A stretch of 64,000 nt of DNA from an uncultured Alphaproteobacteria bacterium (GTDB lineage: Bacteria > Pseudomonadota > Alphaproteobacteria > Rs-D84): positions 79,427 through 143,426 of the forward strand of contig CALXML010000001.1 in NCBI GenBank assembly GCA_944389465.1, written 5' to 3'. The notes below the pieces were generated by a model. The model searched no databases, was not told the DNA's origin, and saw only the letters and a program-made list of their open reading frames with translations. The position numbers were made by a program, and so were the translations under genes. Below, piece after piece: positions 12,644-60,515 of this stretch (position 1 is the first letter of the stretch; every line of letters begins with the position of its first letter).

Positions 12644-13555
12644 ATGTTCCGTAAGTTTTTGATTGTTGCAATGTTTGCCACCGCGGCGGGGTATTGCTTT
12701 GCTGCTGAAAATCTGCCACAGGTTGTCACGTCAGAGGTGTATTATTCCACTGAACCGGTTGTCACCGAACAGCAAGAGATTGTTCAAACAGATGTATCCA
12801 TGCAGGAACAAATCCCTGTTTGGCCGATTGCGGGGTCTGATGCGGATGTTCAGGTTGCATGTGATGATGGGGCGTGCACTGGGGATAAAAACAAAGACAA
12901 TATTCGCATAGTGTCAAAAATAGGTGCGGATTTGGTTGTTGAAAATAATTTTAATTTGGGTGGTGCGTCTGATGGTGATTTTAATGGCTGGTCTGGTGGG
13001 GCAAATATGCTGCATGGAATGCAGGTGCCGGCCGGTTTTGATGACCCATGCAAAAGCGGGGCGGAAATGCCGTTGCTGACCCGCGAAATGCTAGAGGATG
13101 ATGGTGGTTCTGTTTTGGCCGTGTCGCGCAGCAGTCGTCAGGATTGCAATGAATATCGTGATGGATATACCGCATTTATGGCAAAATTTGGTATGAGCGA
13201 GGAAGAAATCGCCGCCGCCAATGAAGAGGCTGCATCACTGGATGCTGAAATTGCAGTTGATGTATCCGCAGATGCCGAAGCACCAGTTACATTAACTGAC
13301 CAAGTGCGTTCATGGGTTGTTGCCAATGGTCAGACTTTGCGTGAGGTATTACAGGATTGGTGCAATAAAGAGGGCTGGGATTTAGTATGGGCAACATCGC
13401 GCGAATATCCAATAGAGGCCAGTGCCGTATTCAAGGGACGCTTTGTTGATGTGGCATCTGCATTGGTGCGTAATTTTGCGCGCGCAACACCAATTCCATA
13501 TGCCAAGTTTTATAAAGGAAACCGTGTGTTGGTAATTTCTACAACAGAAGAGTAA
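12644..13555 (+). CDS. Secreted protein with a TcpQ/PilL-like C-terminal domain, putative secretin partner (pilotin-like)
   Basis: Signal peptide MFRKFLIVAMFATAAGYCFA. The C-terminal ...LREVLQDWCNKEGWDLVWATS...PIPYAKFYKGNRVLVISTTEE resembles the TcpQ-type domain found in PilL/TcpQ proteins that partner type IVb secretins. AGGAAAGGAAG RBS. The secretin gene follows immediately. Confidence 0.5.
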   Translation: MFRKFLIVAMFATAAGYCFAAENLPQVVTSEVYYSTEPVVTEQQEIVQTDVSMQEQIPVWPIAGSDADVQVACDDGACTGDKNKDNIRIVSKIGADLVVENNFNLGGASDGDFNGWSGGANMLHGMQVPAGFDDPCKSGAEMPLLTREMLEDDGGSVLAVSRSSRQDCNEYRDGYTAFMAKFGMSEEEIAAANEEAASLDAEIAVDVSADAEAPVTLTDQVRSWVVANGQTLREVLQDWCNKEGWDLVWATSREYPIEASAVFKGRFVDVASALVRNFARATPIPYAKFYKGNRVLVISTTEE

Positions 13556-13585
13556 GTCACCATTCGGACCGAGGAGAGTATAAAT

Positions 13586-15214
13586 ATGACCAAACCGATA
13601 AAATTTTTATTTATGTGTGGTATTTTGGGGGCGATGGTTGCCGGATGTGCCACCAAGGAATCGGCCAAGGTTGCTGCATCTGTGGACCAAGATTTTATTA
13701 ATGCGTATGATGCATTTGAAATGTCTAAAAATCCACCGGCCAAGGTTGCCAGTGGCGATACTGTCACTATGTCCGAAGGGGTGTGGTTGGGTGCTTCGTC
13801 CACGTTGTTGGAACATCGCAATAATTTGCCATCACAATATGAAACTGATACGGGTATTACTATTTTATTAAATGAACCTGTAACGCTGCAATCTTTGTCC
13901 AATAACATTACATCTATTACGGGAATACCGGTTAAAATTGATAATCAGGTTAATTCTGAAAAATTAAAAAAGACAATTAATATTGCATATACCGGCAGTT
14001 TGTCTGGGTTATTGTCCCAAATTGCAACGGATTTAGATTTGTTGTGGTATTATGATAAATCTGCGGTTGTGTTTTATGAAACAGAAACAAAGACATTCAC
14101 TTTATATGCGTTGGGAACGGATGTTTCATATCAAACGGCCGTTGAAACAGATGATGGTAACACCGTGTCTTTGGAATCCACATTAAAAGAATGGGATGAA
14201 ATTGAAAATGCGCTGGAAACAATTATTGGTGATGTGGATAATGCCAGTTTTACTGTTTCACGCAGTTTGGGTACAATAACTGTTACTGCGCCACCATCAG
14301 TATTGGCCCGTGTATCTGATTATATTGATAAACAAAATAAACGTCTGTCACAATTGGTAACCATTGATGTCAAGGTTTTACAGGTATCAATATCCAATGA
14401 TTCTGCATTTGGGTTGAATTTGGCAGCGGCGATTAATTCGGCATCTGGATTGAATATTGTGGCCAATCCGAAAAATAATTTGGCCAGTACCGAGGCCAGT
14501 TCTATGAACATTGCGGTGTTGTCTAATGCCGTGTCGGCAATGACCGGTGCCACCCATCAAGAGGGCAGCAGCACCGTAGAGGGCGCATATACACAGGACC
14601 AGATTCAAAATGGTTCTTTGTCTGGGTTGGCCGGAACGGATGCCTTGATTCAGGCTTTGGCCAAGCAGGGCAAGGTATCGTTGGTTACAAACGTTGGTGT
14701 TACAACGCGTAATAACCGTGTCGCGCCAGTAAACAACACGCGTACAACCGGATATATTAAACGTTTTGAATCGCGTAACTTTACAACTGTTGAATCCAGC
14801 ACGGTTGACCAAGATGATTTGGAAACAGGATTTTCAATGCAGTTGTTACCGAATGTATTGGAAAATGGTAAAATATTGTTGCTGTTCAGAATGACTGTGC
14901 GTGAATTACTGCGTATGTCCACACAGACAATTGGCGAGGTTACATTACAATTGCCAGAGGTTGAAGAACGCAGTTTCATGCAAGAGGTTATTATGGAATC
15001 TGGCCAAATGTTGGTGGTTTCCGGTTTTGAAAAACAGGAAAGCAACGATACACGTTATGGTTTGGGTGACCCTGACTTTATGGCGTTGTCTGGGTCGCGT
15101 GAAACATCGGCCACCCGTGATGTGTTGGTTGTTATTCTGACACCACAGGTTTTGGTCAGCCCAATGGATGCGGAACGCACAATTCAGCAGCATTGGGGCG
15201 CGCCATTGAATTAA
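13586..15214 (+). CDS. Lipoprotein secretin (type IVb-pilus PilN/BfpB/TcpC-like)
   Basis: Lipobox VAGCAT. The C-terminal half carries the secretin domain (VTIDVKVLQVS...GLN...LLPNVLENGKILLLFRMTVRELL...QMLVVSGFEKQESNDTRYGLGDPDFMALSGSRETSATRDVLVVILTPQVL). GAGGAG RBS. Confidence 0.75.
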   Translation: MTKPIKFLFMCGILGAMVAGCATKESAKVAASVDQDFINAYDAFEMSKNPPAKVASGDTVTMSEGVWLGASSTLLEHRNNLPSQYETDTGITILLNEPVTLQSLSNNITSITGIPVKIDNQVNSEKLKKTINIAYTGSLSGLLSQIATDLDLLWYYDKSAVVFYETETKTFTLYALGTDVSYQTAVETDDGNTVSLESTLKEWDEIENALETIIGDVDNASFTVSRSLGTITVTAPPSVLARVSDYIDKQNKRLSQLVTIDVKVLQVSISNDSAFGLNLAAAINSASGLNIVANPKNNLASTEASSMNIAVLSNAVSAMTGATHQEGSSTVEGAYTQDQIQNGSLSGLAGTDALIQALAKQGKVSLVTNVGVTTRNNRVAPVNNTRTTGYIKRFESRNFTTVESSTVDQDDLETGFSMQLLPNVLENGKILLLFRMTVRELLRMSTQTIGEVTLQLPEVEERSFMQEVIMESGQMLVVSGFEKQESNDTRYGLGDPDFMALSGSRETSATRDVLVVILTPQVLVSPMDAERTIQQHWGAPLN

Positions 15215-15230
15215 AAAATCTGATTAATAA

Positions 15231-15261
15231 TGGACACCATCGTTTGATGGTGTCTTTTTTA
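15231..15261 (+). terminator. Intrinsic terminator after the secretin gene
   Basis: gacaccatc/gatggtgtc hairpin followed by tttttt. Confidence 0.75.
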
Positions 15262-15468
15262 CTTGTGTAAAAATTGCAAAATTTTTATAATACATTTGCG
15301 AGTCTGGTTGAAAAATATGCCGAATAAAAACGGACGTTTTTTTAACGACTTTTTTATGTCAAAAAACTAATATTTTTCCGTGTTTTTATGTTATGAAATA
15401 TGCCGAAATAAAACGTCCGTTTGTTTTTTTGTTATTCAAACCAGTGGAAAGGGAAGTTCACAACAGGG

Positions 15469-15853
15469 TATGTGGCGTTTTGTTGTTTTGATTTTTGTAT
15501 GCTGCGTATTTTGCGCCACTGGTGCGCGTGCTGATATTGCCAGTGCTGGTTATGTTAATGATATTGTCAGTGCGTTGGATGTGCAATCTGATTGGGCACA
15601 AACAGACAGCAATGCTCGCGATTTTATTCGTAATAAGCCGGAAATCCCATCGCCCGATGCGGTGGAATATATTGATAACAAGGTTTTGGAAATATCGGAT
15701 TCTGTGACTGATAATCAATATCCGTCTGCGCGGGCTGTTAATAATGCGCTGTCAACCAAGGCCGATGTTAACGATGTTCGTTTTAATACCGTGCCAACCA
15801 GTCAACCCGTTGGAATGCCACCCGCAGGTCAGGTATTTATATGGTTTAATTAA
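15469..15853 (+). CDS. Small secreted paralogue of the large fibre proteins (carries the YPSA(K/R)AV motif)
   Basis: ATG at 15469 gives the signal peptide MWRFVVLIFVCCVFCATGARA followed by DIASAGYVNDIV... This matches the xIASKGYVD N-terminal box of the 57-62 kb genes. It also contains NQYPSARAVNNAL. The longer ORF-track start at 15380 would run through the upstream GCCGAA box. Confidence 0.6.
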
Positions 15854-15855
15854 AT

Positions 15856-16833
15856 ATGCCCGCGATATATATTGGTGATATTCAAATTCCTGTTCAAATG
15901 GCGCAAAATACAACGCCGTCACTGAAAGTTATGGATGCGTTCGGTGTGGTTTATTATGCTGATGCGATGTTGGGGGCGTGTCCCAATGCCGTAAAGGTTT
16001 CAGACGGCGCAGATGTATACAGCATTGGTGCAAAAACATTGGTGTATCAGGCGGATGCAATTAATTCCTGTGAAATGGTTAATTTGCCCGCGGGATGTTA
16101 TTTCGCAGAAATTCGCGGTGGTCGTGGCGGGGACGGCGGGAATAATGCGGGCAGTGGTATGGATGCCATCGTTCAATCATACAGTTTTACAATTACGCAG
16201 CCCACGGATGTGTATGTTTTTCGTGGGGCGGACGGTAATGCCGGCGCGGTAAATATTGATGGCAACATTGCAACCGGTGGTGGGGGCGGGGCGTCTGGGA
16301 TGCCCAGTATGTTGGTGGTTGGTGAAAATGTAATTATTTCAGATGGGGGCGCGGGTGGTCGCGGCGGTCTGGCATCTGATAACAGTGGCGCAACGTATGA
16401 ATGTGGTTCTGGGGGTGGTGGAAATGGTGGCGAAAATGCAAATGGGTTAAATGCGGTTGCACACTATACATGGAATTATAATTTTTTAATGTGTGGTGCG
16501 GGTGGTGGTGGTGCACCAAATGGCGCATCTGGGGTCAGTGCTGATGCATTAAGCGGTGGTTATGGTGGTGATGCATCTGATGCGGGCAGTCCGGATTCTG
16601 GGGGCAGGGGCGGTGATGCGTGGCGTCTGGTTTCAACAACAACCGGCGGGGCGGGTGGCGCCAGTGTTTCAATGTCTTGCGCGGGACAAACCTTGACATC
16701 GTATGGTGGTGGGGGCGGTGGTGCGGTTCAGGCTAAATTTACGTTGCCGGTAAATATGGATGGTGGAAATGGCGGCAGTGGCACAACCGGCAACAGCGAA
16801 ACCAGTTTCGTGCGGATTTTCAGATTCGGATAG
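15856..16833 (+). CDS. Glycine-rich repeat protein (GGxGG tracts), no signal peptide; possibly tail-fibre-like
   Basis: 325 aa. Starts 2 nt after the previous stop, which suggests translational coupling. Long GG(A/R/D)GG runs. Confidence 0.5.
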   Translation: MPAIYIGDIQIPVQMAQNTTPSLKVMDAFGVVYYADAMLGACPNAVKVSDGADVYSIGAKTLVYQADAINSCEMVNLPAGCYFAEIRGGRGGDGGNNAGSGMDAIVQSYSFTITQPTDVYVFRGADGNAGAVNIDGNIATGGGGGASGMPSMLVVGENVIISDGGAGGRGGLASDNSGATYECGSGGGGNGGENANGLNAVAHYTWNYNFLMCGAGGGGAPNGASGVSADALSGGYGGDASDAGSPDSGGRGGDAWRLVSTTTGGAGGASVSMSCAGQTLTSYGGGGGGAVQAKFTLPVNMDGGNGGSGTTGNSETSFVRIFRFG

Positions 16834-16848
16834 TTACGATTTTTTGCC

Positions 16849-16877
16849 TTGCAGAATTTATAAAAAGTCCATATAAT
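16849..16877 (+). promoter_or_regulatory. Candidate sigma70-type promoter (TTGCAG-17-TATAAT) upstream of the 17036 cysteine-rich gene
   Basis: ttgcag at 16849-16854, a 17 nt spacer, and tataat at 16872-16877. Confidence 0.45.
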
Positions 16878-16975
16878 ACTGGGCGTGCAGGGCAGAAAAA
16901 CGTGCCTAATTAAAAGGGTGGATTTTTTTCAAAGCGTTTTTATGTCTTGAAATCCACGTTTTCTGCCACATTTGG

Positions 16976-16983
16976 CCCCCCCC
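16976..16983. repeat. Poly-C tract (C8) in the leader/promoter region of the 17036 gene, immediately 5' of the GCCGAAATAAA box
   Basis: ggcccccccc read directly from the sequence. Confidence 0.9.
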
Positions 16984-17035
16984 ATTTTTGCCGAAATAAA
17001 CCGACCACTTTTTTTTCTCTTTTACAATTCTGACA

Positions 17036-18913
17036 TTGTTTGTGTCGTCTGCATTTGCGGCCGGATATTCGTGCCCTGCATATAAAAAATATACATCTTG
17101 TAATGCCGGATATTATTTGAATGGAACAGGGGCGGGAAATTCTTGTTCGTCGTGTACGGGTGTGTCGTTTACCAATTATGGTACTGATACCACAACAGAT
17201 TACAGTGGATGCACCGCCACATCACAAACGGTTAGTGGCAGTATCAGTGGTGGTGGTTCGTATACGCAATACCAAACGCGTACCGGTTCGCGTACAGGTA
17301 CACGCAGTAAAAGCCAGACCTGTTATCGTACTGGTGGGGCGGGTGGAACCAGTGGTTCATCTGCTTGTACAGGTATGGGGAATTGCGGGGCGTGGTCATA
17401 TGGCAGTTGGTCGTATGGGGCGTGCAATTACACTGCGTGGGCAAACAGTGGTGCGCGAAAAATAACCTGTCCGGCGGGAACCTATTGGAATGGTTCTGGG
17501 TGTGCGTCCTGTGGCACGGGGTATTATTGTGCGGGCTTTAACAGCGTTGACGAATCGTCATTATTAAATGGTTATGGGCGTAAATCTTGTACAAATGCGC
17601 CGGCAAACGCCAATTACACCGGCAGTGCAACAACAAATTCATGTGCGTGGTCATGCAAGGCGGGCTATTACGGTTCATCCGTCGCGGGCAGTACATCTTG
17701 TGCGGATTGCGGCAGTGGTAATTATTGTACTGGTGGAACACATCGTGCAACATGTGCGTCAACTGTACTGGCCAGTGCGCCAATCCCCACTAACATTATA
17801 TCTGTGTCCAGTGGCAGTTGGTTGGATTTTAATCATGCAACCAGTACATCTGATTGTGTATGTGAATGGTATTTTAGTGATGATGTCAGAACGCAATATA
17901 TGAATCAACGCTTATGCAGTGAAGGGCCGGGGGGAAATAATTATACGCATTATAATTGGTGCAGAACAGGATATTATGCAACTGAACCACTGAATTTTAA
18001 CAATTGGTATAACAACTGTGCGGCGTGCACGAATGGACCGGCTAATTCCACGTACACCAGTTACAGCACCCCATCACAGATGTATGCAGTGGAAAGTAAT
18101 TGCCCGTGGCAATGTAATGCCGGTTTTTACAAAAATGGTAACAGTTGTGTTGCGTGTCCAAGTGCATATCCGTATTCAGATGCGGGTGCAACATCGGTAA
18201 CCCAGTGTTACAGTGGCACAAAAAAACGTGCATGGAACGGCAGTCAAATACCATGTGCAAAGCCATCGGGGTGTGCCACGGTGCAATGTAATGCATGTTC
18301 AAAATCAACGTGTGATTATGTTGCATATGCAAACAGTGCGGGCACTGGTGATGGCGAGGTTAAATCAGGCTGTACCACTAATAATGCGTCGTGTAATCAA
18401 ACGGTTGCGTCGGTTACTGCGGCGTCCGGATATTATGTTAATGGCGTATCCTGTCCGGCGTGCAGTGGGGTGGGGGACGGTTCGTATACTTTGTCTGAAA
18501 ATGGCAATACCGGTGGCAATGCCCAATGTTACAAGATTTGTTCGCGTGCATGTACGCAACAGGCGTGTCCTGCAAATGCCACGTGTACGCATGGCACAAC
18601 CAGTACGTCGGGGGTTCAATATTATGGGGGCGCATGCAATGCGGCCGCGTCAACATGCACCATGTCTTTTGAATGTAATAATGGGTATAACTTAACGTCT
18701 GGCAATATTTGTGCCCAGTTATGCACCGCCGGTGCAACACATTTGAAAACGGGTACTGGGGTCAGTATACCATTATATTCCGCACCGCAATCGGTGCCCG
18801 CAATAAATGTCGGGTATAATGGCGATGTGTGTTATGGCACATTGGCAACCGGCGCGGCCAGTGGGGCATTTAATGTAAAGTACGGCGGTTCAACATATCA
18901 CGCAGTTCAATAA
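17036..18913 (+). CDS. Large cysteine-rich secreted repeat protein (family member; GYYC/CxxC-rich)
   Basis: 625 aa with more than 60 Cys and recurring CxAGYYxxG/CTGG motifs. The ORF-track start is a TTG. The N-terminal LTLFVSSAFAA would be a short signal-like segment if an upstream CTG start is used. The start is uncertain. Confidence 0.6.
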   Translation: MFVSSAFAAGYSCPAYKKYTSCNAGYYLNGTGAGNSCSSCTGVSFTNYGTDTTTDYSGCTATSQTVSGSISGGGSYTQYQTRTGSRTGTRSKSQTCYRTGGAGGTSGSSACTGMGNCGAWSYGSWSYGACNYTAWANSGARKITCPAGTYWNGSGCASCGTGYYCAGFNSVDESSLLNGYGRKSCTNAPANANYTGSATTNSCAWSCKAGYYGSSVAGSTSCADCGSGNYCTGGTHRATCASTVLASAPIPTNIISVSSGSWLDFNHATSTSDCVCEWYFSDDVRTQYMNQRLCSEGPGGNNYTHYNWCRTGYYATEPLNFNNWYNNCAACTNGPANSTYTSYSTPSQMYAVESNCPWQCNAGFYKNGNSCVACPSAYPYSDAGATSVTQCYSGTKKRAWNGSQIPCAKPSGCATVQCNACSKSTCDYVAYANSAGTGDGEVKSGCTTNNASCNQTVASVTAASGYYVNGVSCPACSGVGDGSYTLSENGNTGGNAQCYKICSRACTQQACPANATCTHGTTSTSGVQYYGGACNAAASTCTMSFECNNGYNLTSGNICAQLCTAGATHLKTGTGVSIPLYSAPQSVPAINVGYNGDVCYGTLATGAASGAFNVKYGGSTYHAVQ

Positions 18914-19223
18914 ATTAAAAAACTTGTTTTTATTATCGTCTTAAAATATACTGATTTATGAATCCAAAGGGATTTGGGTTCGGGACCTGAAAAATCCTGT
19001 ATTTAGGCGATGCGGAAACGTATCGTAATCCGACTGAAAAAAACGTCGGCGCGTGTGTTGCGCCGTGTGTTTATATCACCCGATTTAAAAGGTCGGGGAT
19101 TCGCGATTATACAACAGTGGGAAACCATAAAAGTCGCGGGGTCATTCCTAAATATGATTTTTCAATCCCCGACCGCCAATTCCGTGGCGGTTTTTGTTTA
19201 ACAAAAGCAAAAGGGAATTGAAA

Positions 19224-19774
19224 ATGAAAAATCGTGTGTTTATTTGGGGCGTGGCTTTTGCGTGCGCCTGTGTTGGCAATGTTGTTGGGCGAACATGCAC
19301 CAGTTCTGTAAATATACAATGTCCGGTTACAGCGGGTGCAGCAAGTTGTTGCCGTATGTTGAATGAAACCTGTGCAGAGGCGGGCTGTGGCGGTACATCT
19401 GGTGGGGGGATGTGGAAGATTGCGACCCGTGTCCTGCGGCTGAATTGACATGGACGGTAAATCGCTTGTATGGCTTTCAGTACAGAATTTCTGGGTATAT
19501 GCAGGATGCAATAACATGCCGTTGTACACCACAATATATCACGCAATGCATAGCAGGCCGATACGGATTAAGCGTGATAACCACGAACAATATACCAACG
19601 GCTGATGAGGTGGATTGTAAATTTTGTCCGTCTGCTGGTGGGCGGATAAATCCGGCAACATCTGTGGCGGGGAAAAATAATCTTATAACGTCTTGTTATA
19701 TACCGGCCAATGCAACGGGCAGTGATGATACGGGCACGTTTACGGTCAGTAATGATTGTTATTATACAGAATAA
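19224..19774 (+). pseudogene. Cysteine-rich family member with the conserved CYY tail, interrupted by a frameshift in a G6 tract (19404-19409). Either phase-variable or a pseudogene.
   Basis: ATG 19224 with aaaggg RBS encodes the signal peptide MKNRVFIWGVAFACACVG... and the frame closes at 19448. ORF 19412..19774 in another frame ends ...CYIPANATGSDDTGTFTVSNDCYYTE. Adding one G to ggtgggggga gives a continuous ...SGGGDVEDCDPCP... protein. Confidence 0.55.
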
Positions 19775-24594: not shown

Positions 24595-24748
24595 TTAAAT
24601 ATCAATGCCGCAAATGCGGCACTTGTTTTTGTATTGGTAATTTCATTGTTGGAATTACGCAGAAAATATGATAAAATGTACACAATGAATGTAATGTGAC
24701 AATGCCAAAATAACCCAACCTTTATTTTCGGCATGAATGGGGGGACAT

Positions 24749-38413: not shown

Positions 38414-39082
38414 TTCTGTATAATAACAGTTTGACGTTATTGAATATGAACCGGTCGTGTCAGAATACGAACCAGTTGGTATATAACATTCGGTTATTTT
38501 GGATGCACCACGTGGGGTTGTGCCGGGGGTATATGTATGCGGCCCCTTGTTATAATCCGGACACCATGTCAGACCGCGTTCTGTACTGCCCGCTGTAAAC
38601 GTTCCGCCGGCGCAATAATAACCACTGCGGCATTGTGCGCATTCATTATTGTTGGTTATATAATATCCCGCATTGCACATTATGCTGCTGGGAACACAGG
38701 TATTAAGTTGTGTTTTATAAAATCCATTTTTACAATAAAAAGTATCGTTATAATATATATCGCATTCGGCATTTGCCGGACATGGTGTGCATTGTCCCGT
38801 TGATGTTGTATTGGTTGGTATGCCATATGTTCCAGTGTTGCAAACTAAACCGGCTGTTCTGTTACATTGGCACCAATTACCAGCTTGGGTTACATAAAGC
38901 ATATTATAACCGGTACATACCGAAGTTGTTGGGTTACACTTTATTTCTAGTTGTTGAAATGATTCTTCTTTGCCACTGCAAGTTTCGTATAATTCGTCTG
39001 TACAAAGTTGCAACGCCCCAAAAGCCGATATTTCTGAAAAAACAAACACACATAATGCCGTGCCAATTAATCGTATATTCAT
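38411..39082 (-). CDS. Cysteine-rich secreted protein with the conserved CYY tail (family member)
   Basis: Signal peptide MNIRLIGTALCVFVFSEISAFGA. Ends ...ECYIPTGSYSDTTGSYSITSNCYYTE. RBS aaaaaggga. Confidence 0.7.
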   Translation of the reverse strand: MNIRLIGTALCVFVFSEISAFGALQLCTDELYETCSGKEESFQQLEIKCNPTTSVCTGYNMLYVTQAGNWCQCNRTAGLVCNTGTYGIPTNTTSTGQCTPCPANAECDIYYNDTFYCKNGFYKTQLNTCVPSSIMCNAGYYITNNNECAQCRSGYYCAGGTFTAGSTERGLTWCPDYNKGPHTYTPGTTPRGASKITECYIPTGSYSDTTGSYSITSNCYYTE

Positions 39083-39094
39083 TGTATTTCCCTT

Positions 39095-39230
39095 TTTGTT
39101 GTCTAAAACAAATGACCGATTTTTTTCGGCAAAATTGGGAATCAGAAAAATGCAAAAATCTGGGATTTTTATTAAAATAAAAACACCGATGTTAATCGGT
39201 GGTTTGTTTTCGGCATACTTTCATACGTAA
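39095..39230 (-). promoter_or_regulatory. Conserved 5' leader cassette of the cysteine-rich gene
   Basis: Read on the minus strand: atgccgaaaacaaaccaccgattaacatcggtg, then tttttatttt (hairpin plus T-run), then ttttgccgaaaaaaatcgg, then the RBS and ATG. About 85% identical to 50215-50335. Confidence 0.5.
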
Positions 39231-39349
39231 TTATTATATATTGTTTTAATTATACGGGGCAAGTGGAAAAATTCTGTGTTTTCTGATTTAAATTTGATTT
39301 TTCATTTTTTTATGCTAATATTGCGCCGCAAAATAAAGGATATACGATA

Positions 39350-39956: not shown

Positions 39957-40526
39957 ATGGCATCATATATTGCAAATGATATGCGTGTGGGATGGGTTAT
40001 TTCCTATAACGGCAAACGTTATTCTGTTATGTCTATTACCAAGGTTAAACCGGGCAAGGGCGGTGCATTTGTTCAGGCGGACCTGCGCGATATTGATTCA
40101 GGAAACAAGGATAACAATCGTTGGCGTGCCGAAGATAAAGTTGAAAAATTAATGGTGGAAGATATTGAATGCCAATATCTGTATTCTGATGGTACGGACG
40201 CATACTTTATGAATTTGACCAGTTATGAACAGTTCACTGTATCTGTTGAATCATTGGGTGAACAAATGAAATTTTTAGCACCTGAAATGTTGGTCAAGGT
40301 TAATTTTGTAGAGGGCCAGCCCGTATCCGTTTCACTGCCCAAAACAGTTGTTGCAACCGTTGAAGAAACAGAACCCGCATTAAAGGGCCAAACTGTTTCC
40401 AGCAGCGGTGGCAAACCTGCAATTTTGGACAATGGTGTACGTGTTCAAGTTCCGCTGTTCATTGAACAGGGTGAAAAAATCGTGGTAAATACTGAAACCT
40501 TGGAATACGTTGAACGCGCAAAATAA
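39957..40526 (+). CDS. efp: Elongation factor P
   Basis: 189 aa. EF-P family (KPGKGGAF loop region). Confidence 0.9.
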   Translation: MASYIANDMRVGWVISYNGKRYSVMSITKVKPGKGGAFVQADLRDIDSGNKDNNRWRAEDKVEKLMVEDIECQYLYSDGTDAYFMNLTSYEQFTVSVESLGEQMKFLAPEMLVKVNFVEGQPVSVSLPKTVVATVEETEPALKGQTVSSSGGKPAILDNGVRVQVPLFIEQGEKIVVNTETLEYVERAK

Positions 40527-40550
40527 ATTATAATGGCACATCTGCAAAGA

Positions 40551-40850
40551 TTGGCGGGTGTTCATGTAGCGTTTGTACACTTCACACCCGCCAATTTTTG
40601 CATCTATACCATTCTAATTTATTTTATTAATGCTATGTTTTAGCAACTTATGTAACGCTTGTACACTACGCAAATTTTTTGCCGTCATCTATATTATTCT
40701 AATTCATTTTACATAACTGTGCGTATCTGTACCATTCTAATTTATTTTATAAAAGGTACATTTATAAATAATGGCGATTGCTCATGTAACGCTTGTACAC
40801 TACGCAATCGCCATTGTTTACATCTATATCATTCTAATTTATTTTTGTCG
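40551..40850. repeat. Intergenic tandem repeat array with two alternating units. Unit A is roughly catgtaRcgYttgtacac, present in 3 copies. Unit B is catctataYcattctaatttatttt, present in 4 copies. Two A copies are embedded in hairpins with covarying stems.
   Basis: Direct reading: A copies near 40564, 40649 and 40783; B copies near 40601, 40685, 40725 and 40821. Hairpin stems ggcgggtg/cacccgcc and ggcgattg/caatcgcc enclose similar loops. Confidence 0.7.
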
Positions 40851-41135
40851 GCGGAATTTTTCGCAGATTTTTTCTCCCGTCATTTTGGCGGGCGTTTTTT
40901 AATCTTGCATAGTATTTGTGTGTGCGGTAACATACTTTTGCCGGCGGGTGTTCCGCGGGCGGGGTGTGGAAACCCTTCTTTTGCGTCGCATTTTGGCGAT
41001 GATAAGTTAATCCCTGATTTTTGGTCAGGGGGGTCGTGAATATATTGAATAAGCGACACAATTCAAAAGATTGTTTCCAACCTCCTGACCACCAAAATTT
41101 TGGTGGTTTTTGTTTAACAAAAACAAAACAGGGGT

Positions 41136-41735
41136 TTGAAAATGAAAAAAATATTTGTGCCGGCGTTATTGCTGGGGGTGATTGTGCCCAATGCGGTGTA
41201 TGGTGCTGTAAAACCACCAGTTTCAGGTGAAGAAAATGCCTATGTTGGCAAAGAGATGGGGTGGGCCACGTGTCAGTTATGTATGGATAGTGCACTGTCG
41301 TTGCGCGATTGGATATTATCCATGGGCTTTGCGGACGAGTCGTGTTTAGGATTGTCATCTAACCCAGATTACATAGCATACAAAGGCACATTGAGTGAAC
41401 ATGTTACTTATGATGCACAACAATTAGGAATGCCACAAGCAGGCGAGATTGTGAACAGTTATATGGATTCCGTGGCTGCAGAGGTGTGTAATGGCGTTCC
41501 GCCGGCAGGTTCGTGTATGTATTACGGTATGTGTATGTGCGCGGCGAATTATTATCCATATGCTGGTGATGATTGGTACGGTGCGTTAGAGTGTGTGGCG
41601 TGTCCCAGTGGCGGAAAATCCAATGAAAATTCACAGTTTGGTATTACAGATTGCTATATTCCGGCCGGAACAACGGGTTCTGATGAAACAGGAAAATTTA
41701 CGTATTCGTCGGACTGTTATTATACAACGAATTAA
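41136..41735 (+). CDS. Cysteine-rich secreted protein with the conserved CYY tail (family member)
   Basis: Signal peptide MKKIFVPALLLGVIVPNAVYGA. Ends ...DCYIPAGTTGSDETGKFTYSSDCYYTTN. The leader is conserved with that of 19224. Confidence 0.7.
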   Translation: MKMKKIFVPALLLGVIVPNAVYGAVKPPVSGEENAYVGKEMGWATCQLCMDSALSLRDWILSMGFADESCLGLSSNPDYIAYKGTLSEHVTYDAQQLGMPQAGEIVNSYMDSVAAEVCNGVPPAGSCMYYGMCMCAANYYPYAGDDWYGALECVACPSGGKSNENSQFGITDCYIPAGTTGSDETGKFTYSSDCYYTTN

Positions 41736-44072: not shown

Positions 44073-44192
44073 TGCTGAAAATAAACCTTGGTTTGGATTT
44101 GTTGTTTTTATTAATTGACAGTTTGGCGGGAAACGTGCAAAAATTTAATAATAAATATGCCGAATCTAACCCAACATTTATATACGGCGGGG

Positions 44193-49781: not shown

Positions 49782-50288
49782 TTATTCTGAATAATAGCAG
49801 TTATTCGTATATGTGCATGTACCGGATGTGTCAGAACAACTGCTGCCACTGGGCAGATAGCATGATGTTATGCTGGTGCTGCCGGTGGGGGATGTGCCGC
49901 CCCCCGGACATTCTGTGCATTGACCTGCAAGAAAGGATGTTGGGGTGCCATAATATCCGGCCGCGCATTTATATGAATATCTGCGTGAACAGGTACATGT
50001 GATTGTGCCGGTCATACCAGTTGGACAATTTGATAGTATGGATGCGGTCCCTGTGGTTATAACACCATTTCTGGTGGTGGTGGTATTTTTGCAGTTACGG
50101 CAAGAGTCGCCCTCGCACGATGAATCAACTGTCCAGTTTGCACCGACAGGCATTTGTGGACACATATAGCATATAATATCCGCATTTGCCGTTGGAATAA
50201 ATATTGTCAGAAAACCACCGATTTTTTTCGGCAAAAAAGGGGAGTAAAAAAATGCAAAAATCTGGGATTTTTTCAAAATTAAAAACAC
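49782..50288 (-). CDS. Cysteine-rich family member with the conserved CYY tail; N-terminus unclear (no obvious signal peptide)
   Basis: Ends ...CPGGGTSPTGSTSITSCYLPSGSSCSDTSGTCTYTNNCYYSE. The ORF-track GTG start lies inside the conserved leader cassette. The first internal ATGs give MCPQMPVG... without a signal peptide. It may be a 5'-degenerate copy. Confidence 0.45.
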   Translation of the reverse strand: MFLILKKSQIFAFFYSPFLPKKIGGFLTIFIPTANADIICYMCPQMPVGANWTVDSSCEGDSCRNCKNTTTTRNGVITTGTASILSNCPTGMTGTITCTCSRRYSYKCAAGYYGTPTSFLAGQCTECPGGGTSPTGSTSITSCYLPSGSSCSDTSGTCTYTNNCYYSE

Positions 50289-50335
50289 CGATTATAATCG
50301 GTGGTTTATTTTCGGCATTTATTTATAATATATGT
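50215..50335 (-). promoter_or_regulatory. Second copy of the conserved leader cassette (GCCGAAA box, hairpin, T-run)
   Basis: About 85% identical to 39095-39230, including the caccgatNNNNatcggtg hairpin. Confidence 0.5.
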
Positions 50336-50392
50336 TACATAAAAAGGCGCGTAACGTCAAACAAAATATCCCGCAAATGCGGGATGTTTTGT

Positions 50393-54600: not shown

Positions 54601-54662
54601 CATAAAATGCTATTGACCCGATTCGCATAAATATGATATTATTGTTTAGGTAGAGAGAATTG

Positions 54663-57218
54663 ATGAAAAAAGAACTGAAAATTTCAAGGTTGGCAATAAT
54701 TTGCGTCTTGTGTACGGCGGTGTCTGGTGCGTATGGTGCATCGTCGGTTCGGTCGTTGGGTGGCAGTGGCACATATTCCAGTGCGTCTGATGCGGCGGCT
54801 GCGAACAGTGGTTCTGCCGGTTCAACTGCTGCTGTTCGTGGCGGGTCTGTGCGTGTAACGCCGTCGTCTGGTGTTTCTGGGACCGGTACAACAATAAATG
54901 CCGGAACAACAACCAGTGGCCGTGTTGCGACAACGCCGCGTTTATCAATTGGTCATTATTTGGGTGGTGGTACGTCTGTCAGTGGTGGCAGTTCGTTGCG
55001 TCCGCAAACACCGTCAACCGGTGGTGGCAGTATGAATCCGGGGGAATCCGGTGGTGCCAGTGGCTGGCAGGATGCTGTTGACGAATTGTGGGATGAAATT
55101 GATGGGTTGTATGCGGCCGATACTGATATCAGTGACCAATTACAAAACAAGCAAGATGTGCTGACTGCGTCTGATGGTTTGATAACCATTGAAAATGGTG
55201 AAATTTTCATTGAAACAGATAATTTGGCTGGCGCAATAGAAGATAAACTGGGGACATCACGCCAAATTGAATTGGGTGTTGATGGCGGTTATGTTGTGTG
55301 GCGTTATGCCGGTGATGCAGATTGGCAGAATTTGGTCGCACTGGATGATTTACGTGGTCCACAGGGCGAGGCCGGCGAATCCGTCACAGTAGAAGATGTT
55401 ATCAATGGCATAGAAGATGACCTGCAGGCGGCGGTTAATACCGCGGTATCTGCGGCGGTTGCGGCCGAAATTGAAAAGGCTGATTTGGTAACAAATACGG
55501 AGTTAGAAAAGTTTGCGACGGATGTAGTGGAACGTGGCTTACAGGCCAAGGCAAACGCCGCCGATGTTTACACCAAGGCCGAGGTTTATAATAAAACCGA
55601 GGTTGACAGCAAGGTTGCAGACATTGTTGCCGGCGATATGGACGAGGCATTGGCAAACAAAGCAGACAAGACGTATGTTGATACTGAATTATCAAAGAAA
55701 GCGGATAAAACAGAATTAGCAAATTATGCAACAACCGCCAGTGTGTCTGCATTGGGAACAGAAATTGATGATGTAGCCCAAGCGGCCGGTGGCGCGGCGG
55801 CAACTGCAACCGCGGCGGCATCTGATGCGGCGCGGGCGTTAAGTGGTCTGGATGCCAAGGAAAATGTTTCTAATAAACAGCAAACTGTAACAAACAGTGC
55901 GACGGATTATCCGTCCGGTGCGGCGGTAACCGCGGCGTTGGCGGACAAGGCCGATAAAACGGAATTGGCGGGTTATGCCACGACTGATGATTTAGATGCC
56001 AAGGCTGACAAGGCAACAACATTGGCCGGATATGGTATTACCGATGCATATACCACAACACAGATTGATGAAAAGTTAGAAGCCGTAACCGTTGGTGGTA
56101 TGGAGGGTATGGAACAAGTTCTGGCCGGCAAGCAAGATGTTGCCAATATGGCGCAAACTGTTACCGATGATGACACAAAATATCCATCTTCTGCGGCGGT
56201 ATATGGTGAATTGGAAACCAAGGCCAATGCATCTGATTTAAAAACCACAAATGAAACGGTAAATCAGATTGAACAAAACGTTACAAATGTAACGGAAACT
56301 GTTAATGAATTGGATGAAACAATTAATAATGCCGAAACAGGTTTGGTTAAACAGGTTAATGAAATAAACCAAAATGTTACCAATGTGACGCAAAGTGTTA
56401 CAAATATCACAGAACAGGTAACTGAAATTACAAATCCTGAAACCGGTTTGAAATCACAAATAGACGCGGTGGCCACAACGGCTGAATCTGCTGCACAGAC
56501 GGCGCAAACCGCACAACAGACGGCGCAAACCGCACAACAAACGGCGGAACAGGCCCAACAAACAGCCACCGGCGCACAAAGCGCGGTGGAAGCATTGGGG
56601 GCAACTGTTGGTAATGCAGAATCTGGTCTGGTCAAGGATGTTGCCGATGCAGCGGCCGCGGCCAATGATGCCAAGACAACCGCCGGTGCAGCACAGGAAA
56701 CTGCAAATACCGCACAGGAAACAGCCAATGCAGCAAAAAGTGCGGCTGATGCGGCAACTGCGGGATTGGCAAATAAACAGGATAAATTGGAATACACACC
56801 TGAAAATCAGGCATTGAAAACACAGGATATTGAAACCAATGCGGGTTCAACAACAATGTATCCATCGGCCAAGGCTGTTGTGGATTATGTTGCGAATGCT
56901 GTGGCCGAGGGCGTGGACATTAACACCGATAAAATCCAAAACGGTGCGGTTACCATGGAAAAATTGGGTGAAGATGTCAAGGCGGAATTAGATGCCAAGG
57001 CCGATGCAGATTCATTGGGTAAGTTGGCGCAAAGGGACGAAATTACGAATGCCGAGGTTGCGGCCAATGCCGCGATTGAAAAGTCTAAATTGGCGTCTGA
57101 TGTTCAGGCGGCATTGGACAAGGCTGAAAAAGCGGTCAGCACTGATGGTGCGGCTGGGAATAGTGTGCTGGGTACTGATGGTGACGGAAATCCAGTATGG
57201 TACGAAATAGCAATGTAG
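54663..57218 (+). CDS. Large secreted fibre protein 1 (851 aa; Ser/Gly-rich N-terminus, coiled-coil and phage-tail-fibre-like repeats)
   Basis: Signal peptide MKKELKISRLAIICVLCTAVSGAYGA. Repeats include KADKTELAGYATT, LAGYGITDAYT, NAESGLVKDV, KYPSAKAVVDYV and DKIQNGAVTMEKLGED. RBS gagag. Confidence 0.65.
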   Translation: MKKELKISRLAIICVLCTAVSGAYGASSVRSLGGSGTYSSASDAAAANSGSAGSTAAVRGGSVRVTPSSGVSGTGTTINAGTTTSGRVATTPRLSIGHYLGGGTSVSGGSSLRPQTPSTGGGSMNPGESGGASGWQDAVDELWDEIDGLYAADTDISDQLQNKQDVLTASDGLITIENGEIFIETDNLAGAIEDKLGTSRQIELGVDGGYVVWRYAGDADWQNLVALDDLRGPQGEAGESVTVEDVINGIEDDLQAAVNTAVSAAVAAEIEKADLVTNTELEKFATDVVERGLQAKANAADVYTKAEVYNKTEVDSKVADIVAGDMDEALANKADKTYVDTELSKKADKTELANYATTASVSALGTEIDDVAQAAGGAAATATAAASDAARALSGLDAKENVSNKQQTVTNSATDYPSGAAVTAALADKADKTELAGYATTDDLDAKADKATTLAGYGITDAYTTTQIDEKLEAVTVGGMEGMEQVLAGKQDVANMAQTVTDDDTKYPSSAAVYGELETKANASDLKTTNETVNQIEQNVTNVTETVNELDETINNAETGLVKQVNEINQNVTNVTQSVTNITEQVTEITNPETGLKSQIDAVATTAESAAQTAQTAQQTAQTAQQTAEQAQQTATGAQSAVEALGATVGNAESGLVKDVADAAAAANDAKTTAGAAQETANTAQETANAAKSAADAATAGLANKQDKLEYTPENQALKTQDIETNAGSTTMYPSAKAVVDYVANAVAEGVDINTDKIQNGAVTMEKLGEDVKAELDAKADADSLGKLAQRDEITNAEVAANAAIEKSKLASDVQAALDKAEKAVSTDGAAGNSVLGTDGDGNPVWYEIAM

Positions 57219-57229
57219 GGGGAATTTAA

Positions 57230-58951
57230 ATGAAAAAATCAAATATTGCATTTTCTGGATTTATGGCGGCGATTTTAATTAGTGCCGGCGCGGCAAATGC
57301 TGCAACAACCCAGATTGCCAGCAAAACATATGTGGATAACAAGGAAACATCAATCCTGCAAACGGTTGGTGACACATATGAAACCAAGGCGAATGTCCAA
57401 ATAATTCAACAAAATGTGAACAAATTGGGCGATACTATTAATAATGAAGAATCCGGTCTGAAGGCACAAATAGAAGACGCGGCCGCCGCGGCGCAAACCG
57501 CACAACAGACGGCGGAATCGGCCCAGCAAACGGCCACCGGTGCACAAAGTGCGGCCACGGCATTGGGGGTAACTGTTGGTAACGCTGAATCTGGATTGGT
57601 CAAGGATGTTAATGATTTGGAGGCAACAGTTGGTGGGTTGCAAACAACGGTCAGTGGTTTGGATAAAGAACTGGATTCCAAATTAGACAGCGCAACCGCC
57701 GCAACAACATATGAAAAAGTGTCTAATAAATCACAGGATTTGGCAACCGATGCGGGCAGTACAGATAAATATCCATCGGCCAAGGCAGTTGTGGACTGGG
57801 TCAGCAATACTGTGACCGAGGGCATAGAAATTAATACTGATAAAATCCAAAATGGCGCAATCACGACTGAAAAAATTGGGGATGATGCGGTAACGGCGGA
57901 TAAAATTGCACCTGATGCGGTTGGAAATGAACAAATTGCTGATGGCGCGGTATCATCTGATAAATTGGATGAAACGTTGGCCGGACAAATTGCCGATATT
58001 TCTGGCAAGCAGGACATTGCAATGGGTGTCGGTCACGAAAATCATATCGTGACAACTGATGCGTCCGGTAATATTACATCCGCCGCGACAATCGGCCAGG
58101 ACAAGGTTACTGGATTGACCGATGCCTTGGCGGGCAAGGCCGATGCATCCGCGTTGGAAGAAATTGAACAAAATGTGGAACAGGTTCAAAATCAATATAC
58201 AACAATTAATGAAACAGTAACGAAATTGGGCGATACAATTACCAACGAAGAAAGTGGTTTAAGCACCCAGATTACAAATATTACACAACAAATTGGTAAT
58301 GCAGAATCCGGTTTGGTCAAGGATGTCGCCGACGCGGCGGCCGCGGCTGAAACTGCGCAACAAACGGCCACCGGCGCACAAAATGCGGTTGATGCATTGG
58401 AAACGGTTGTTGATGGCAAGGCAAACGCATCCACAACACTGGCGGGATATGGCATAACCGATGCGTATACCAAGACCGAAACAGATGGTCTGTTGGATGC
58501 CAAGGCCGATGAAAGTGCTTTGGCTGGGTATGCAACAACGGGTGCGTTGACGTCTGGATTGGCAGGCAAAGAAGATACATCTAATAAGACCAAAATAATC
58601 AATGATGGCAATAAATCGTCTGAAACACTGTTCCCGACAATTGGCGCAATCACCACGTGGACAGATCAACAGATTCAACAGTTATCGACCGAGGGTATTC
58701 CTGTTAATCCAGATAACATTGGTTCAAATGCAATTACAACCGATAAAATTGCCAATGGTGCTGTTACAACAGAAAAATTGGCGGACGATTCCGTGACAGA
58801 AGACAAGCTGAGCAATGATGTTGTTGCATCTATTGATGCAAAGTTACCGGCGCCGGATGCGGATTGTGTTGCGGATTCAAATCTGTGCGTATTGACAGTA
58901 ACGCCCAGTGGTGATTTGGCGTGGGTTGCGGTAACACAGCCGGCAGAATAA
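57230..58951 (+). CDS. Secreted fibre protein 2 (573 aa), paralogue
   Basis: Signal peptide ending ...ANAATTQIASKTYVD. Shares ESGL/NAESGLVKDV, KYPSAKAVVDWV, DKIQNGAITTEKIGDD and LAGYGITDAYTKTE with protein 1. The C-terminal CVADSNLCVLTVTPSGDLAWVAVTQPAE is shared with protein 3. RBS aggggg. Confidence 0.65.
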   Translation: MKKSNIAFSGFMAAILISAGAANAATTQIASKTYVDNKETSILQTVGDTYETKANVQIIQQNVNKLGDTINNEESGLKAQIEDAAAAAQTAQQTAESAQQTATGAQSAATALGVTVGNAESGLVKDVNDLEATVGGLQTTVSGLDKELDSKLDSATAATTYEKVSNKSQDLATDAGSTDKYPSAKAVVDWVSNTVTEGIEINTDKIQNGAITTEKIGDDAVTADKIAPDAVGNEQIADGAVSSDKLDETLAGQIADISGKQDIAMGVGHENHIVTTDASGNITSAATIGQDKVTGLTDALAGKADASALEEIEQNVEQVQNQYTTINETVTKLGDTITNEESGLSTQITNITQQIGNAESGLVKDVADAAAAAETAQQTATGAQNAVDALETVVDGKANASTTLAGYGITDAYTKTETDGLLDAKADESALAGYATTGALTSGLAGKEDTSNKTKIINDGNKSSETLFPTIGAITTWTDQQIQQLSTEGIPVNPDNIGSNAITTDKIANGAVTTEKLADDSVTEDKLSNDVVASIDAKLPAPDADCVADSNLCVLTVTPSGDLAWVAVTQPAE

Positions 58952-59003
58952 AAAACGGATTTTGAAACTGAAAATAAAACAAACTAAAAGAAAGGAAAGG
59001 AAA

Positions 59004-60404: not shown

Positions 60405-60515
60405 TAACGGCGTAACAATATGTGTGCGGTGTTAAATGTGCACCGCACATATAAAAACAGGTAAATGCGGAACAAAGTGATACTGAAAAATAATATTTGT
60501 AGGTAGATAACAGCA

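Follow-up and report, generated by a model that had tools for sequence, protein, structure and literature searches.

sRNA-Xcc1 (RF02221) is an 88-nt RNA from an integron cassette of Xanthomonas campestris that is seen on Northern blots and annotated as trans-acting; in integron cassettes it precedes symE, and in APSE phages an ORF6N gene. In the mpl surface-antigen family of Mycoplasma penetrans, each gene has its own invertible element, which carries a promoter and not a translation start, and in the vsa family of M. pulmonis one expression site serves many silent genes. The cwpV switch of C. difficile, which depends on RecV, has its promoter outside the invertible region and a terminator at the left repeat in the OFF orientation only (PMC2784873). 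Its segment of 195 bp, bounded by 21-bp repeats, holds neither a ribosome-binding site (RBS) nor coding sequence; inversion has been demonstrated, about 5% of cells are ON, and the reference genome is OFF (PMC2784873). "Partial intergenic" invertons also exist as a category (PhaVa; Milman et al.). Here, we describe two leader elements in a 64,000-nt stretch of contig CALXML010000001.1 (hereafter the window), from an uncultured gut Alphaproteobacterium of the Rs-D84/Candidatus Enterousia lineage, an order with uncultured members, genomes of ~0.75-1 Mb and a wide distribution in animal and human guts. An initial annotation had placed a single shared cassette, made of a GCCGAAA-TAAA box, a GC hairpin and a T-run, upstream of many secreted-protein genes of this stretch. 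We think it reasonably likely that the "cassette" is instead two unrelated elements preceding genes of one hypervariable family: a structured attenuator leader (class II), to which the flagged site at 19150-19223 belongs, and a boxed module (class I) that is probably a mini-inverton. The literature we searched describes neither element for the Rs-D84/Enterousia lineage.

The strings quoted in the initial annotation are all present in the window at the positions it gave, and the hairpin with T-run that it reported at the flagged site is picked up by a terminator scan (19171-19192). With eight pairs, five of which are GC, a 6-nt loop and TTTGTTT directly after the stem, it has the make-up of an intrinsic terminator, namely a GC-rich stem of at least 5 bp with a short loop and a U-run immediately 3'. 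One shared cassette forming a single attenuation or antitermination regulon would account for hairpins and T-runs that do occur in leaders 3' of promoters, and for the similarity of the terminator hairpins of both classes (ACCACC...GGTGG followed by T5). Nevertheless, we regard this as very unlikely. The box that was meant to define the regulon is absent from 19150-19223 and from 41070-41135, and the elements fall into two families without cross-matches between sequence and covariance models: a covariance model of class II, R1, hits only 19074-19229 and 41008-41147 in the window, and an nhmmer profile of the boxed regions recovers 11 full modules and a number of diverged ones, none of them at 19150-19223 or 41070-41135. 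Moreover, the competitor of the terminator in boxed modules, the right inverted repeat X', lies downstream and is transcribed after the terminator, so it cannot stop termination, and several boxed genes lack a start codon. Attenuation or antitermination is thus a reading that fits 19150-19223 and 41070-41135, where the 5' arm of the terminator overlaps a covarying alternative helix and the Shine-Dalgarno (SD) sequence has conserved complementary partners, and does not fit the boxed modules. The remark that stems differ between copies while pairing is kept is borne out by comparison of the stems: those of class II covary over 72 copies, and the arms of the boxed modules differ from module to module yet are complementary within each. 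As for the antiterminator or extracytoplasmic function (ECF) sigma factor that the annotation envisaged, a Pfam scan of 40 window proteins yielded no candidate.

Taken by itself, the box is modestly enriched: TGCCGAAAWAAA, with at most one mismatch, occurs nine times in the window against 3.3 expected, and 3 of 100 shuffles reach nine. Eight of these nine lie in intergenic leaders, up to ~170 nt 5' of signal-peptide genes, and at three loci two boxes stand 83-84 nt apart. The sites at 24700-24748 and 44150-44192 are boxed as well and have another order, namely box, loop, reverse box, RBS and ATG.

In class II, the flagged hairpin and T-run turn out to be the 3' end of a longer conserved element, as seen in an alignment of the flagged region with 41008-41147 and a copy on contig L015. 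The complete leader is a structured 5' RNA of 200-260 nt that starts from a sigma-70-type promoter (Table 1, leaders A and B). Its layout, established on 28 and then on 72 sequences, runs from S1 (consensus CTCCTGA) and S2 (GGTCAGGAGG) through the helices P2 and P3, a joiner (TTnTCAA) and S3 (CCTCCTGACC) to a terminator hairpin (ACCACCAAA...TTTGGTGG followed by T5; in leader B ACCACCAAAA/TTTTGGTGGT followed by T5), an A-rich spacer, S4 (CAGGAG) and ATG AAA. S4 is the real SD and S2 is SD-like, while S1 and S3 resemble an anti-SD sequence; the core has no conserved upstream open reading frame (ORF). Upstream of S1 lie two further conserved domains behind a TTGnnn-17-TATAAT promoter, and this promoter in turn is 3' of the terminator of the previous gene. 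Therefore, the flagged hairpin sits within a leader and is not the end of an upstream gene, in agreement with the initial annotation, which had placed the hairpins inside 5' leaders; they lie 3' of sigma-70-like promoters. That the hairpins are plain terminators of upstream genes, with inverted repeats arising by chance, is an explanation to which we give almost no credence: terminator-like sites abound (22 in 10 kb, where 12 would be expected), but the hairpins stand 258 and 560 nt past the upstream stop codons and 3' of a promoter, and conservation and covariation extend over 72 copies. At 39095-39230, a class I module (module C), there is indeed no upstream gene to terminate, the neighbour ppa being divergent.

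R1 recovers 72 copies of the class II element in 532 kb of related loci, two in the window and 70 elsewhere. In the three-way junction P1-P3, where S2 and S3 pair as P1 and close over the hairpins P2 and P3, 95.8% of cells are paired across 71 distinct sequences, a figure inflated by the use of an alignment fitted to the structure for counting; controls with slid registers give 30-55%. Changes on both sides are seen at 16 of the 21 pairs, in 250 cells, which none of 500 shuffles reaches, and P1 by itself is 98% paired with double changes at 7 of its 10 pairs. At one P1 position, the pair is AU in 35 copies, UA in 17 and GC in 15, a variety of pair types that is hard to obtain otherwise, even with a structure-fitted alignment. 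Since G.U pairs outnumber A.C pairs 122 to 17, the helices form in RNA of the gene strand and are not DNA repeats. The inverted repeat made by S2 and S3 was also considered as an inverton, a reading that the nested covarying hairpins, the 7:1 ratio of G.U to A.C and the single orientation of all 72 copies rule out.

The junction has well-defined competitors. The alternative helix S1:S2 covaries (89% paired), and so does the pairing of S3 with the SD: the GGGAA of leader A is matched by ATCCCC in S3, and an SD of AGGAG by CCTCCT. GACC is common to the 3' end of P1 (CCTCCTGACC) and the start of the terminator stem, so that a helix preceding the terminator overlaps its 5' arm. The P1 fold and the fold that combines S1:S2 with S3:SD and the full terminator exclude each other, with a median energy difference of 2.35 kcal/mol. 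This overlap and exclusivity give the leader the logic of an attenuator. If S2 pairs with S3, the three-way junction would use the first bases of the terminator stem and polymerase would read through; if S1 pairs with S2, S3 would be left free and the full terminator would form, and S3 could also mask the SD. A putative factor, which could be a protein, a small molecule, a small RNA (sRNA) or a 30S subunit bound to the decoy S2, would tip the balance. The class II leader may in this way govern the box-less paralogues by setting SD and anti-SD mimics against a terminator, and perhaps senses free ribosomes. Two points weigh against this mechanism: the minimum-energy fold pairs the SD in both states, with S1 or with S3, which leaves the release of translation unexplained, and our search brought up no effector for the leader.

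At gathering thresholds, Rfam reports tRNA-Phe alone in the whole window. In a permissive search, 19091-19182 matches RF02221 over its full length (model positions 1-87) at 49.6 bits (E 2e-8 to 4.5e-8), below the gathering score of 53 bits, and a copy of the same subtype on contig L058 (2188-2279) reaches 56.4 bits, above that score. The flagged site has the three-way junction P1-P2-P3 of RF02221 with its GC-rich closing helix. Judged by sequence and predicted fold, the class II junction appears to be a distant member of the orphan family sRNA-Xcc1. Our data suggest that at least this branch of the family acts in cis. Against the assignment stand the score of the window copy, which stays under the cutoff, and the lack of any RF02221 match for site B or for the majority subtype; R1 unites all class II subtypes. 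The relation also raises the alternative that class II is a free-standing trans-acting sRNA gene, like sRNA-Xcc1, that ends at the flagged terminator, with the downstream gene expressed separately. The match to an experimentally detected 88-nt sRNA, together with a promoter and a terminator of its own, would suit such a gene. We find it improbable, because only ~30 nt separate the terminator from the SD, and this gap is A-rich and has no promoter-like hexamers, so the gene needs read-through; because the element stands one-to-one with family genes in a fixed position and orientation; and because S3 and S1 covary with each gene's own SD. The two roles, as cis-leader and as sRNA, could coexist in class II. 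We have high confidence in the structure of class II and in its role in cis.

The association with the gene family is direct. Of 76 loci fetched through the C-terminal motif of the family, ~65 have the element on the strand of the family gene, 300-650 nt 5' of it. Conversely, 44 of the 72 downstream ORFs end in the CYY motif, most of the others are cut short or diverged, and nearly all begin with a signal peptide. The genes behind the sites quoted in the initial annotation likewise encode cysteine-rich proteins with signal peptides, and most family proteins end in CP..G....IT.CYIP.G..GSD.TG.FT...CYYTE. No Pfam family matches the cysteine-rich proteins among the 40 scanned, and their relatives are found only in metagenome-assembled genomes labelled Alphaproteobacteria, Rickettsiales or Candidatus Enterousia. 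Contig L003, from a related species, is syntenic with the window, and its orthologues share ~70-80% protein identity. The family is hypervariable and secreted, and the organism that carries it is a gut Alphaproteobacterium with a reduced genome. The gene behind the flagged leader is itself split into two overlapping ORFs (19224-19448 and 19412-19774) at a G6 run (19404-19409); adding one G to the run would restore a single family protein of ~183 aa. Behind the split could lie a phase switch by strand slippage, the decay of a pseudogene or a mistake in the assembly.

Class I has an altogether different anatomy. A module of ~105 nt consists of a promoter, box 1, a left inverted repeat (X), a segment of ~70 nt, box 2, a right inverted repeat (X') and the gene body. 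Box 1 reads (A/G)TGCCGAA and has a strong sigma-70-like promoter 7-25 nt upstream. The window has four box pairs (15317/15400, 16902/16988, 39216/39132 and 50318/50234), with a spacing of 83-86 nt. The inverted repeats are perfect over 6-14 nt, with centres 78-88 nt apart, and differ between modules while being complementary within each: ACCACCGAT/ATCGGTGGT, ACCACCGTTTT/AAAACGGTGGT, AAACGGACGTTTT/AAAACGTCCGTTT and AAACGGTCC/GGACCGTTT. X has, in most modules, a second pairing partner in an adjacent third copy that is followed by a T-run, and this is the hairpin of the initial annotation. Copies outside the window, from genome loci and a metagenome scan, lie on L015, L060, L110, L139, L186, L106 and L091, with diverged ones on L044, L050, L036, L057, L019 and L011. 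Within the window, the profile matches 16914-17007 (E 8e-5), and the module at 15308-15421, whose profile score is not significant (E 0.76), was counted in on its two boxes and perfect 13-nt inverted repeat. The box itself was also examined as a promoter element and rejected: as a sigma-28 (FliA) -10 element (GCCGATAA), it has by eye no TAAA -35 ~15 nt upstream, and it stands at a variable distance (7 to 25 nt) from the sigma-70-like -10; as a sigma-54 site, it lacks a proper -24 partner.

Modules 39216-39113(-) and 50318-50215(-) are 87% identical over 102 nt, the L003 orthologues of modules C and D keep the same 104 nt with no indels while the promoter region 5' of them is unconserved, and none of the 11 full modules has an indel between the boxes. 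In the flanking genes, 55-67% of synonymous sites differ, and in the comparison of module D a module ~87% identical stands where synonymous sites differ at 57%; class I modules are thus under strong constraint. They also behave as a conserved 5' cassette on variable genes, because two loci, L139 (3618-3721) and L186 (330-433), differ only in their gene bodies: the upstream region and module are 98.6% identical up to box 2 and the 2.1-kb downstream flank is 96% identical, and between these shared flanks lie unrelated gene bodies of 1183 and 938 nt, with the replacement beginning exactly at box 2. On L003 (2402-2421) and L060 (2497-2516), a third box with the repeat arm ATGCCGAATGCAATCGGTCG stands exactly 84 nt before box 1 of module D, its opposite strand being an ON-type leader of a divergent family gene (MKIRFLFLLG...); boxes here recur at an 84-nt period, or ~8 helical turns.

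The reading frames around the modules are unusual. Past X', the gene bodies open partway through a signal peptide (for example, ...IGG FLTIFIPTANA|DIIC) and have no SD sequence. Just inside box 2, the opposite strand carries GGGG or GGAG and, 6-8 nt further, an ATG that opens ~18 codons reading MQKSGIF.K.K.P..IGG. When we simulated a flip at X/X', these codons fused in frame to the gene body in all ten cases (eight by script and two by hand), and every product had all the parts of a canonical signal peptide: charged N-region, hydrophobic core and AxA cleavage site. The start-less gene body of module D shows a dN/dS of 0.13 at a dS of ~1.1, indicating purifying selection, and the 625-codon cysteine-rich ORF at 17036-18913, which has no usable start, cannot persist by chance in DNA of 42% GC. 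In the public annotation, this ORF is replaced by five short ORFs in other frames. The frame of box 2 reads LPK followed by TAA in six modules, four of which (L015, L110, L186 and window 16988) precede a start-less gene body, the other two being L044 and window 15400. Box 2 as a real start ((A/T/G)TG CCG AA, giving MPK or MPN) is attractive in W-D, L036 and L050 and fails as a general rule, since TAA occupies codon 4 in six modules and the bases before the box are rich in C and do not form an SD. An independent small membrane protein encoded by the reverse mini-ORF was rejected too: its tail after IGG is unconserved, the terminator lies inside it, and it is absent from L044 and window 15317. 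At the 16988 box, a C8 run (16976-16983) and a T8 run (17009-17016) stand on either side.

From the anatomy of the modules, their frame relations and the purifying selection on them, all of which are direct observations, we infer that inversion probably occurs. In the assembled orientation, the left repeat and the start of the segment would form a terminator and the gene body would lack an RBS and a start, leaving the gene doubly OFF. A flip between the repeats would remove the terminator, let box 1 and the reversed box 2 form a 5' hairpin, and join RBS, ATG and the N-terminus of the signal peptide to the gene in frame (ON). Folding predictions give a hairpin with a U-run at -9 to -16 kcal/mol for the OFF state, and for the ON state a 5' hairpin with no U-run and a free SD. 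The direct repeat of the box gains a purpose here, because box 1 pairs with the reversed box 2 after the flip. In silico, the two orientations thus correspond to different expression states, terminator and missing start in one and fusion in the other, in 10 of 10 modules. A fixed ON-like layout (box, loop, reverse box, RBS, ATG and a long ORF) is found at 24702-24734, L003 2409(-) and L202 291. In L202, cluster P0041 (MPKINHRFISAKMEDKKMQKSGIF...) runs from box 1 through ACCGAT and a reversed box 2 to RBS and ATG, which is the predicted flipped left junction with a crossover inside the repeat, and this is the sole contig with such a junction. In addition, two Logan contigs stop exactly at the module edge, as would fit a repeat or a variable site.

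Several observations count against inversion. All 11 full modules, and all re-assemblies of the strain, are in one orientation (OFF), and ~125 orthologous D proteins all have OFF-type N-termini. Searches for the ON state with a simulated flipped D protein, an ON N-terminus profile, a metagenome pattern scan and other assemblies gave nothing except the L202 junction; against 5.8 billion clusters, the ON N-terminus profile found no long protein and only three small OFF-type ORFs, one of them P0041. The right half of L202 is a fold-back, in which the same promoter, box 1 and X return in reverse complement, so that the contig could be a chimera in which the assembler joined ON and OFF paths, or could reflect a genuine rearrangement. 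Module 16902/16988 has a degenerate inverted repeat, and the codon-position test only weakly favours coding on the reverse strand (6, 7 and 2 substitutions in the three position classes). No recombinase gene turned up among the 40 window proteins scanned with Pfam; related contigs hold XerD-like genes (L044 and L036) and a 198-aa serine recombinase in L186, ~6 kb from the module, none with a demonstrated link to the modules. Lastly, 70-85 bp is unusually short for an invertible segment, and we know of no well-studied invertible switch as short as ~84 bp. On the other side, the cwpV precedent makes an OFF-dominated assembly something to expect and means that such a design exists. At L186 4519-8385, 4-8 kb from the boxed module, a large serine recombinase (542 aa), the small Hin-like one (198 aa) and a C5 cytosine methyltransferase lie together and may constitute a mobile element.

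For the boxes, the strongest competing explanation is a leader that does not invert, in which a short upstream ORF from box 1 (ATG CCG AAA, MPK...) would begin near the transcription start and its translation through the hairpin would control termination; the reverse RBS and ATG would be the fossil of an old inversion spread by gene duplication and conversion, and D-type genes would start non-canonically. The single orientation of all assemblies suits this explanation, as do the -10 elements of D-type modules, which end 7-13 nt before the ATG of box 1 and make the mRNA (nearly) leaderless, and the frame of that ATG, which is open into the gene in L003, L060 and clusters P0004-P0008 (MPKTNHRLQSMVLFLKKSRISAFFYSPFLPNPIGGFL...). 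However, this frame is closed by TAA at codon 4 of box 2, or by earlier stops, in W-D, L015, L110, L186 and window 16988, where gene bodies are intact and selected. The ORFs opened by the ATG of box 1 vary from 3 to 46 codons, and variation avoids the wobble positions of that frame. Nor would all 10 copies of a fossil have kept, across a dS of ~1, the RBS, the ATG, an open frame and the right phase with the gene, and the L202 junction counts against it. We therefore consider the non-inverting leader rather unlikely but far from negligible.

For the inversion itself, the case appears to us about evenly balanced: the GCCGAAA-boxed module may well be a very short inversion switch, or mini-inverton, that carries a translation start. 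More tentatively, and leaning somewhat towards doubt, we propose the fuller scheme in which each gene has its own mini-inverton of ~84 bp that would flip the RBS, the start codon and ~18 signal-peptide codons and not the promoter, and that would form a terminator when OFF and a protective 5' hairpin when ON, for gene-by-gene antigenic variation alongside box-less paralogues under the structured leader.

Table 1. Positions of the parts of class II leaders, class I modules and ON-like boxed sites in the window (SD, Shine-Dalgarno; RBS, ribosome-binding site).
Feature	Position	Strand	Evidence or remark
Leader A, promoter TTGTTT-17-TATACT	18924..18952	+	predicted; TTGnnn-17-TATAAT at the same position in 25 aligned related leaders
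Leader A, S1 CACCCGAT, anti-SD-like; partner S2 or the real SD	19077..19084	+	helix H1 89% paired, 4/7 pairs with double changes
Leader A, three-way junction: P1 GGTCGGGGA / TCCCCGACC, P2 19102-19138, P3 19140-19160	19091..19174	+	RF02221 49.6 bits; R1 94 bits; covariation
Leader A, terminator GACCGCC...GGCGGTT and T5; 5' arm overlaps P1 3' strand	19171..19196	+	helix 82% paired, 6/8 pairs with double changes
Leader A, SD GGGAA and ATG (19224) of the cysteine-rich gene	19213..19226	+	GGGAATTGAAAA complementary to TTTTCAATCCCC at 19159-19170 (repeat I3, 12 nt, 92%)
Leader B, promoter TTGCAT-17-TAACAT	40905..40933	+	predicted
Leader B, full core: S1 41011-41018, S2 41023-41033, P2, P3, S3 41081-41090, terminator 41088-41111, SD 41129-41134, ATG 41142	41008..41147	+	R1 145 bits
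Module before gene 15470, promoter TTGTGT-17-TATAAT	15263..15291	+	
Same module, box 1 ATGCCGAAT and left inverted repeat AAACGGACGTTTT	15317..15340	+	perfect 13-nt inverted repeat, centres 82 nt apart
Same module, box 2 ATGCCGAAA and right inverted repeat AAAACGTCCGTTT; gene with its own SD and ATG at 15470	15400..15422	+	
Module before gene 17036-18913, promoter TTGCAG-17-TATAAT	16849..16877	+	
Same module, degenerate box 1 GTGCCTAAT and weak left inverted repeat	16902..16929	+	profile E 8e-5
Same module, reverse-strand GGGGGGGG RBS, ATG and 21 codons MWQKTWISRHKNALKKIHPFN; if flipped, in frame with 17036-18913	16916..16983	-	
Same module, box 2 TTG CCG AAA TAA, in frame with the 625-codon ORF, stop at codon 4; right inverted repeat and T8 follow	16988..17016	+	
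Module C, promoter TTGCCC-17-TATAAT	39233..39262	-	
Module C, box 1, left inverted repeat ACCACCGAT, hairpin and T-run (putative OFF-state terminator)	39174..39216	-	-9.8 kcal/mol
Module C, opposite-strand mini-ORF MQKSGIFIKIKTPMLIGGLFSAYFHT, preceded by GGGAA	39150..39230	+	
Module C, box 2 and degenerate right inverted repeat (ATCGGTca); gene C with its own SD, ATG at 39082	39113..39132	-	
Module D, promoter TTGACG-17-TAACAT	50332..50360	-	
Module D, box 1, left inverted repeat AAACCACCGATT, hairpin and T-run	50281..50318	-	-12.9 kcal/mol
Module D, opposite-strand GGGGAG RBS, ATG, MQKSGIFSKLKTPIIIGG	50239..50304	+	
Module D, box 2 and right inverted repeat AATCGGTGGTTT, directly followed by gene body ...FLTIFIPTANA|DIIC, no SD	50212..50234	-	dN/dS 0.13
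ON-like site: box, loop, reverse box (palindrome), then GGGGGG and ATG (24749), 487-aa secreted protein	24702..24734	+	
Weak ON-like site: box, CCCAAC, degenerate reverse box, then GGGGA and ATG (44196)	44157..44188	+	

Additional features of the leaders and of the neighbouring DNA deserve mention. The two extra 5' domains of class II lie at 18960-19076, at 40940-41007 and in related loci. The first consists of a hairpin that covaries and has GUGUU as its loop, with GGGGUGUGGAAACC after it, and the second has GCGUCG...CGACG around a GC hairpin with its own U-run, which makes it a second terminator-like site in the leader; Rfam gives no match for either domain. Within the 615-nt spacer between efp and leader B, blastn finds imperfect internal direct repeats at 40560-40850 (24-64 nt, 84-100% identical), and Tandem Repeats Finder reported no repeats on 40400-41200. 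At 12644-16833, TcpQ-like and secretin genes are followed by a boxed gene for a small secreted protein (15470-15853) and by a gene for a 325-aa glycine-rich protein (15856-16833); together these genes may form a locus for a pilus or for secretion that is connected with the cysteine-rich family. Four consecutive large ORFs at 54660-62093 (852, 573, 480 and 525 aa) have no Pfam match; their GC content is 0.46-0.51 and their AT skew ~+0.2 to +0.26, compared with ~0.40 and a negative skew elsewhere.

Almost nothing is known of how bacteria of the Rs-D84/Enterousia lineage deal with their host, and our findings show two elaborate devices in control of the cysteine-rich secreted proteins, which make up their largest variable gene family. 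Class II brings the orphan sRNA-Xcc1 a cis-regulatory role that can be tested and 72 new sequences rich in covariation. Should class I modules invert, they would add to the known invertons a very short one with a translation start and part of a signal peptide on it, would explain missed or mis-started gene calls such as the fragmented 17036-18913, and would provide gene-by-gene ON/OFF antigenic variation in a gut Alphaproteobacterium with a reduced genome.

Compared with known systems, class II shares with sRNA-Xcc1 a GC-rich P1 (GGxCGGGG / CCCCGxCC), a P2 with AUACAA...GAAA, P3 and a U-rich joiner, and sRNA-Xcc1, too, sits directly 5' of protein genes. In contrast to sRNA-Xcc1, the class II junction is embedded in a longer leader with a separate terminator hairpin, the decoy S1 and masking of the SD; it stands before each member of a family of secreted proteins, in another bacterial class, the Alphaproteobacteria, and its majority subtype falls below all Rfam thresholds. 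Like terminator/antiterminator leaders, whether riboswitch platforms or protein-dependent attenuators, class II has a conserved helix whose 3' strand overlaps the 5' arm of a terminator, exclusive and nearly isoenergetic folds, and an SD with a conserved partner. Unlike them, it involves a four-way competition with two anti-SD mimics and one SD mimic, and unlike metabolite riboswitches it occurs in many copies per genome, one per paralogue.

Class I resembles cwpV in its outside promoter, in a terminator at the left repeat that would form in the OFF orientation only, and in the prevalence of OFF, as the majority or reference state. The differences lie in size and cargo: a segment of ~70-85 bp with repeats of 6-14 bp, which would carry RBS, start codon and ~18 codons, and an inversion that is proven for cwpV and proposed here. 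With the surface-antigen families mpl and vsa, class I has in common a large paralogous family, a short element of its own for each gene bounded by inverted repeats, silent bodies that lack a 5' end, and a conserved 5' module on variable bodies. It departs from them in that no dedicated recombinase was identified, that there is not a single expression site, and that the element belonging to each gene would carry the translation start rather than the promoter.

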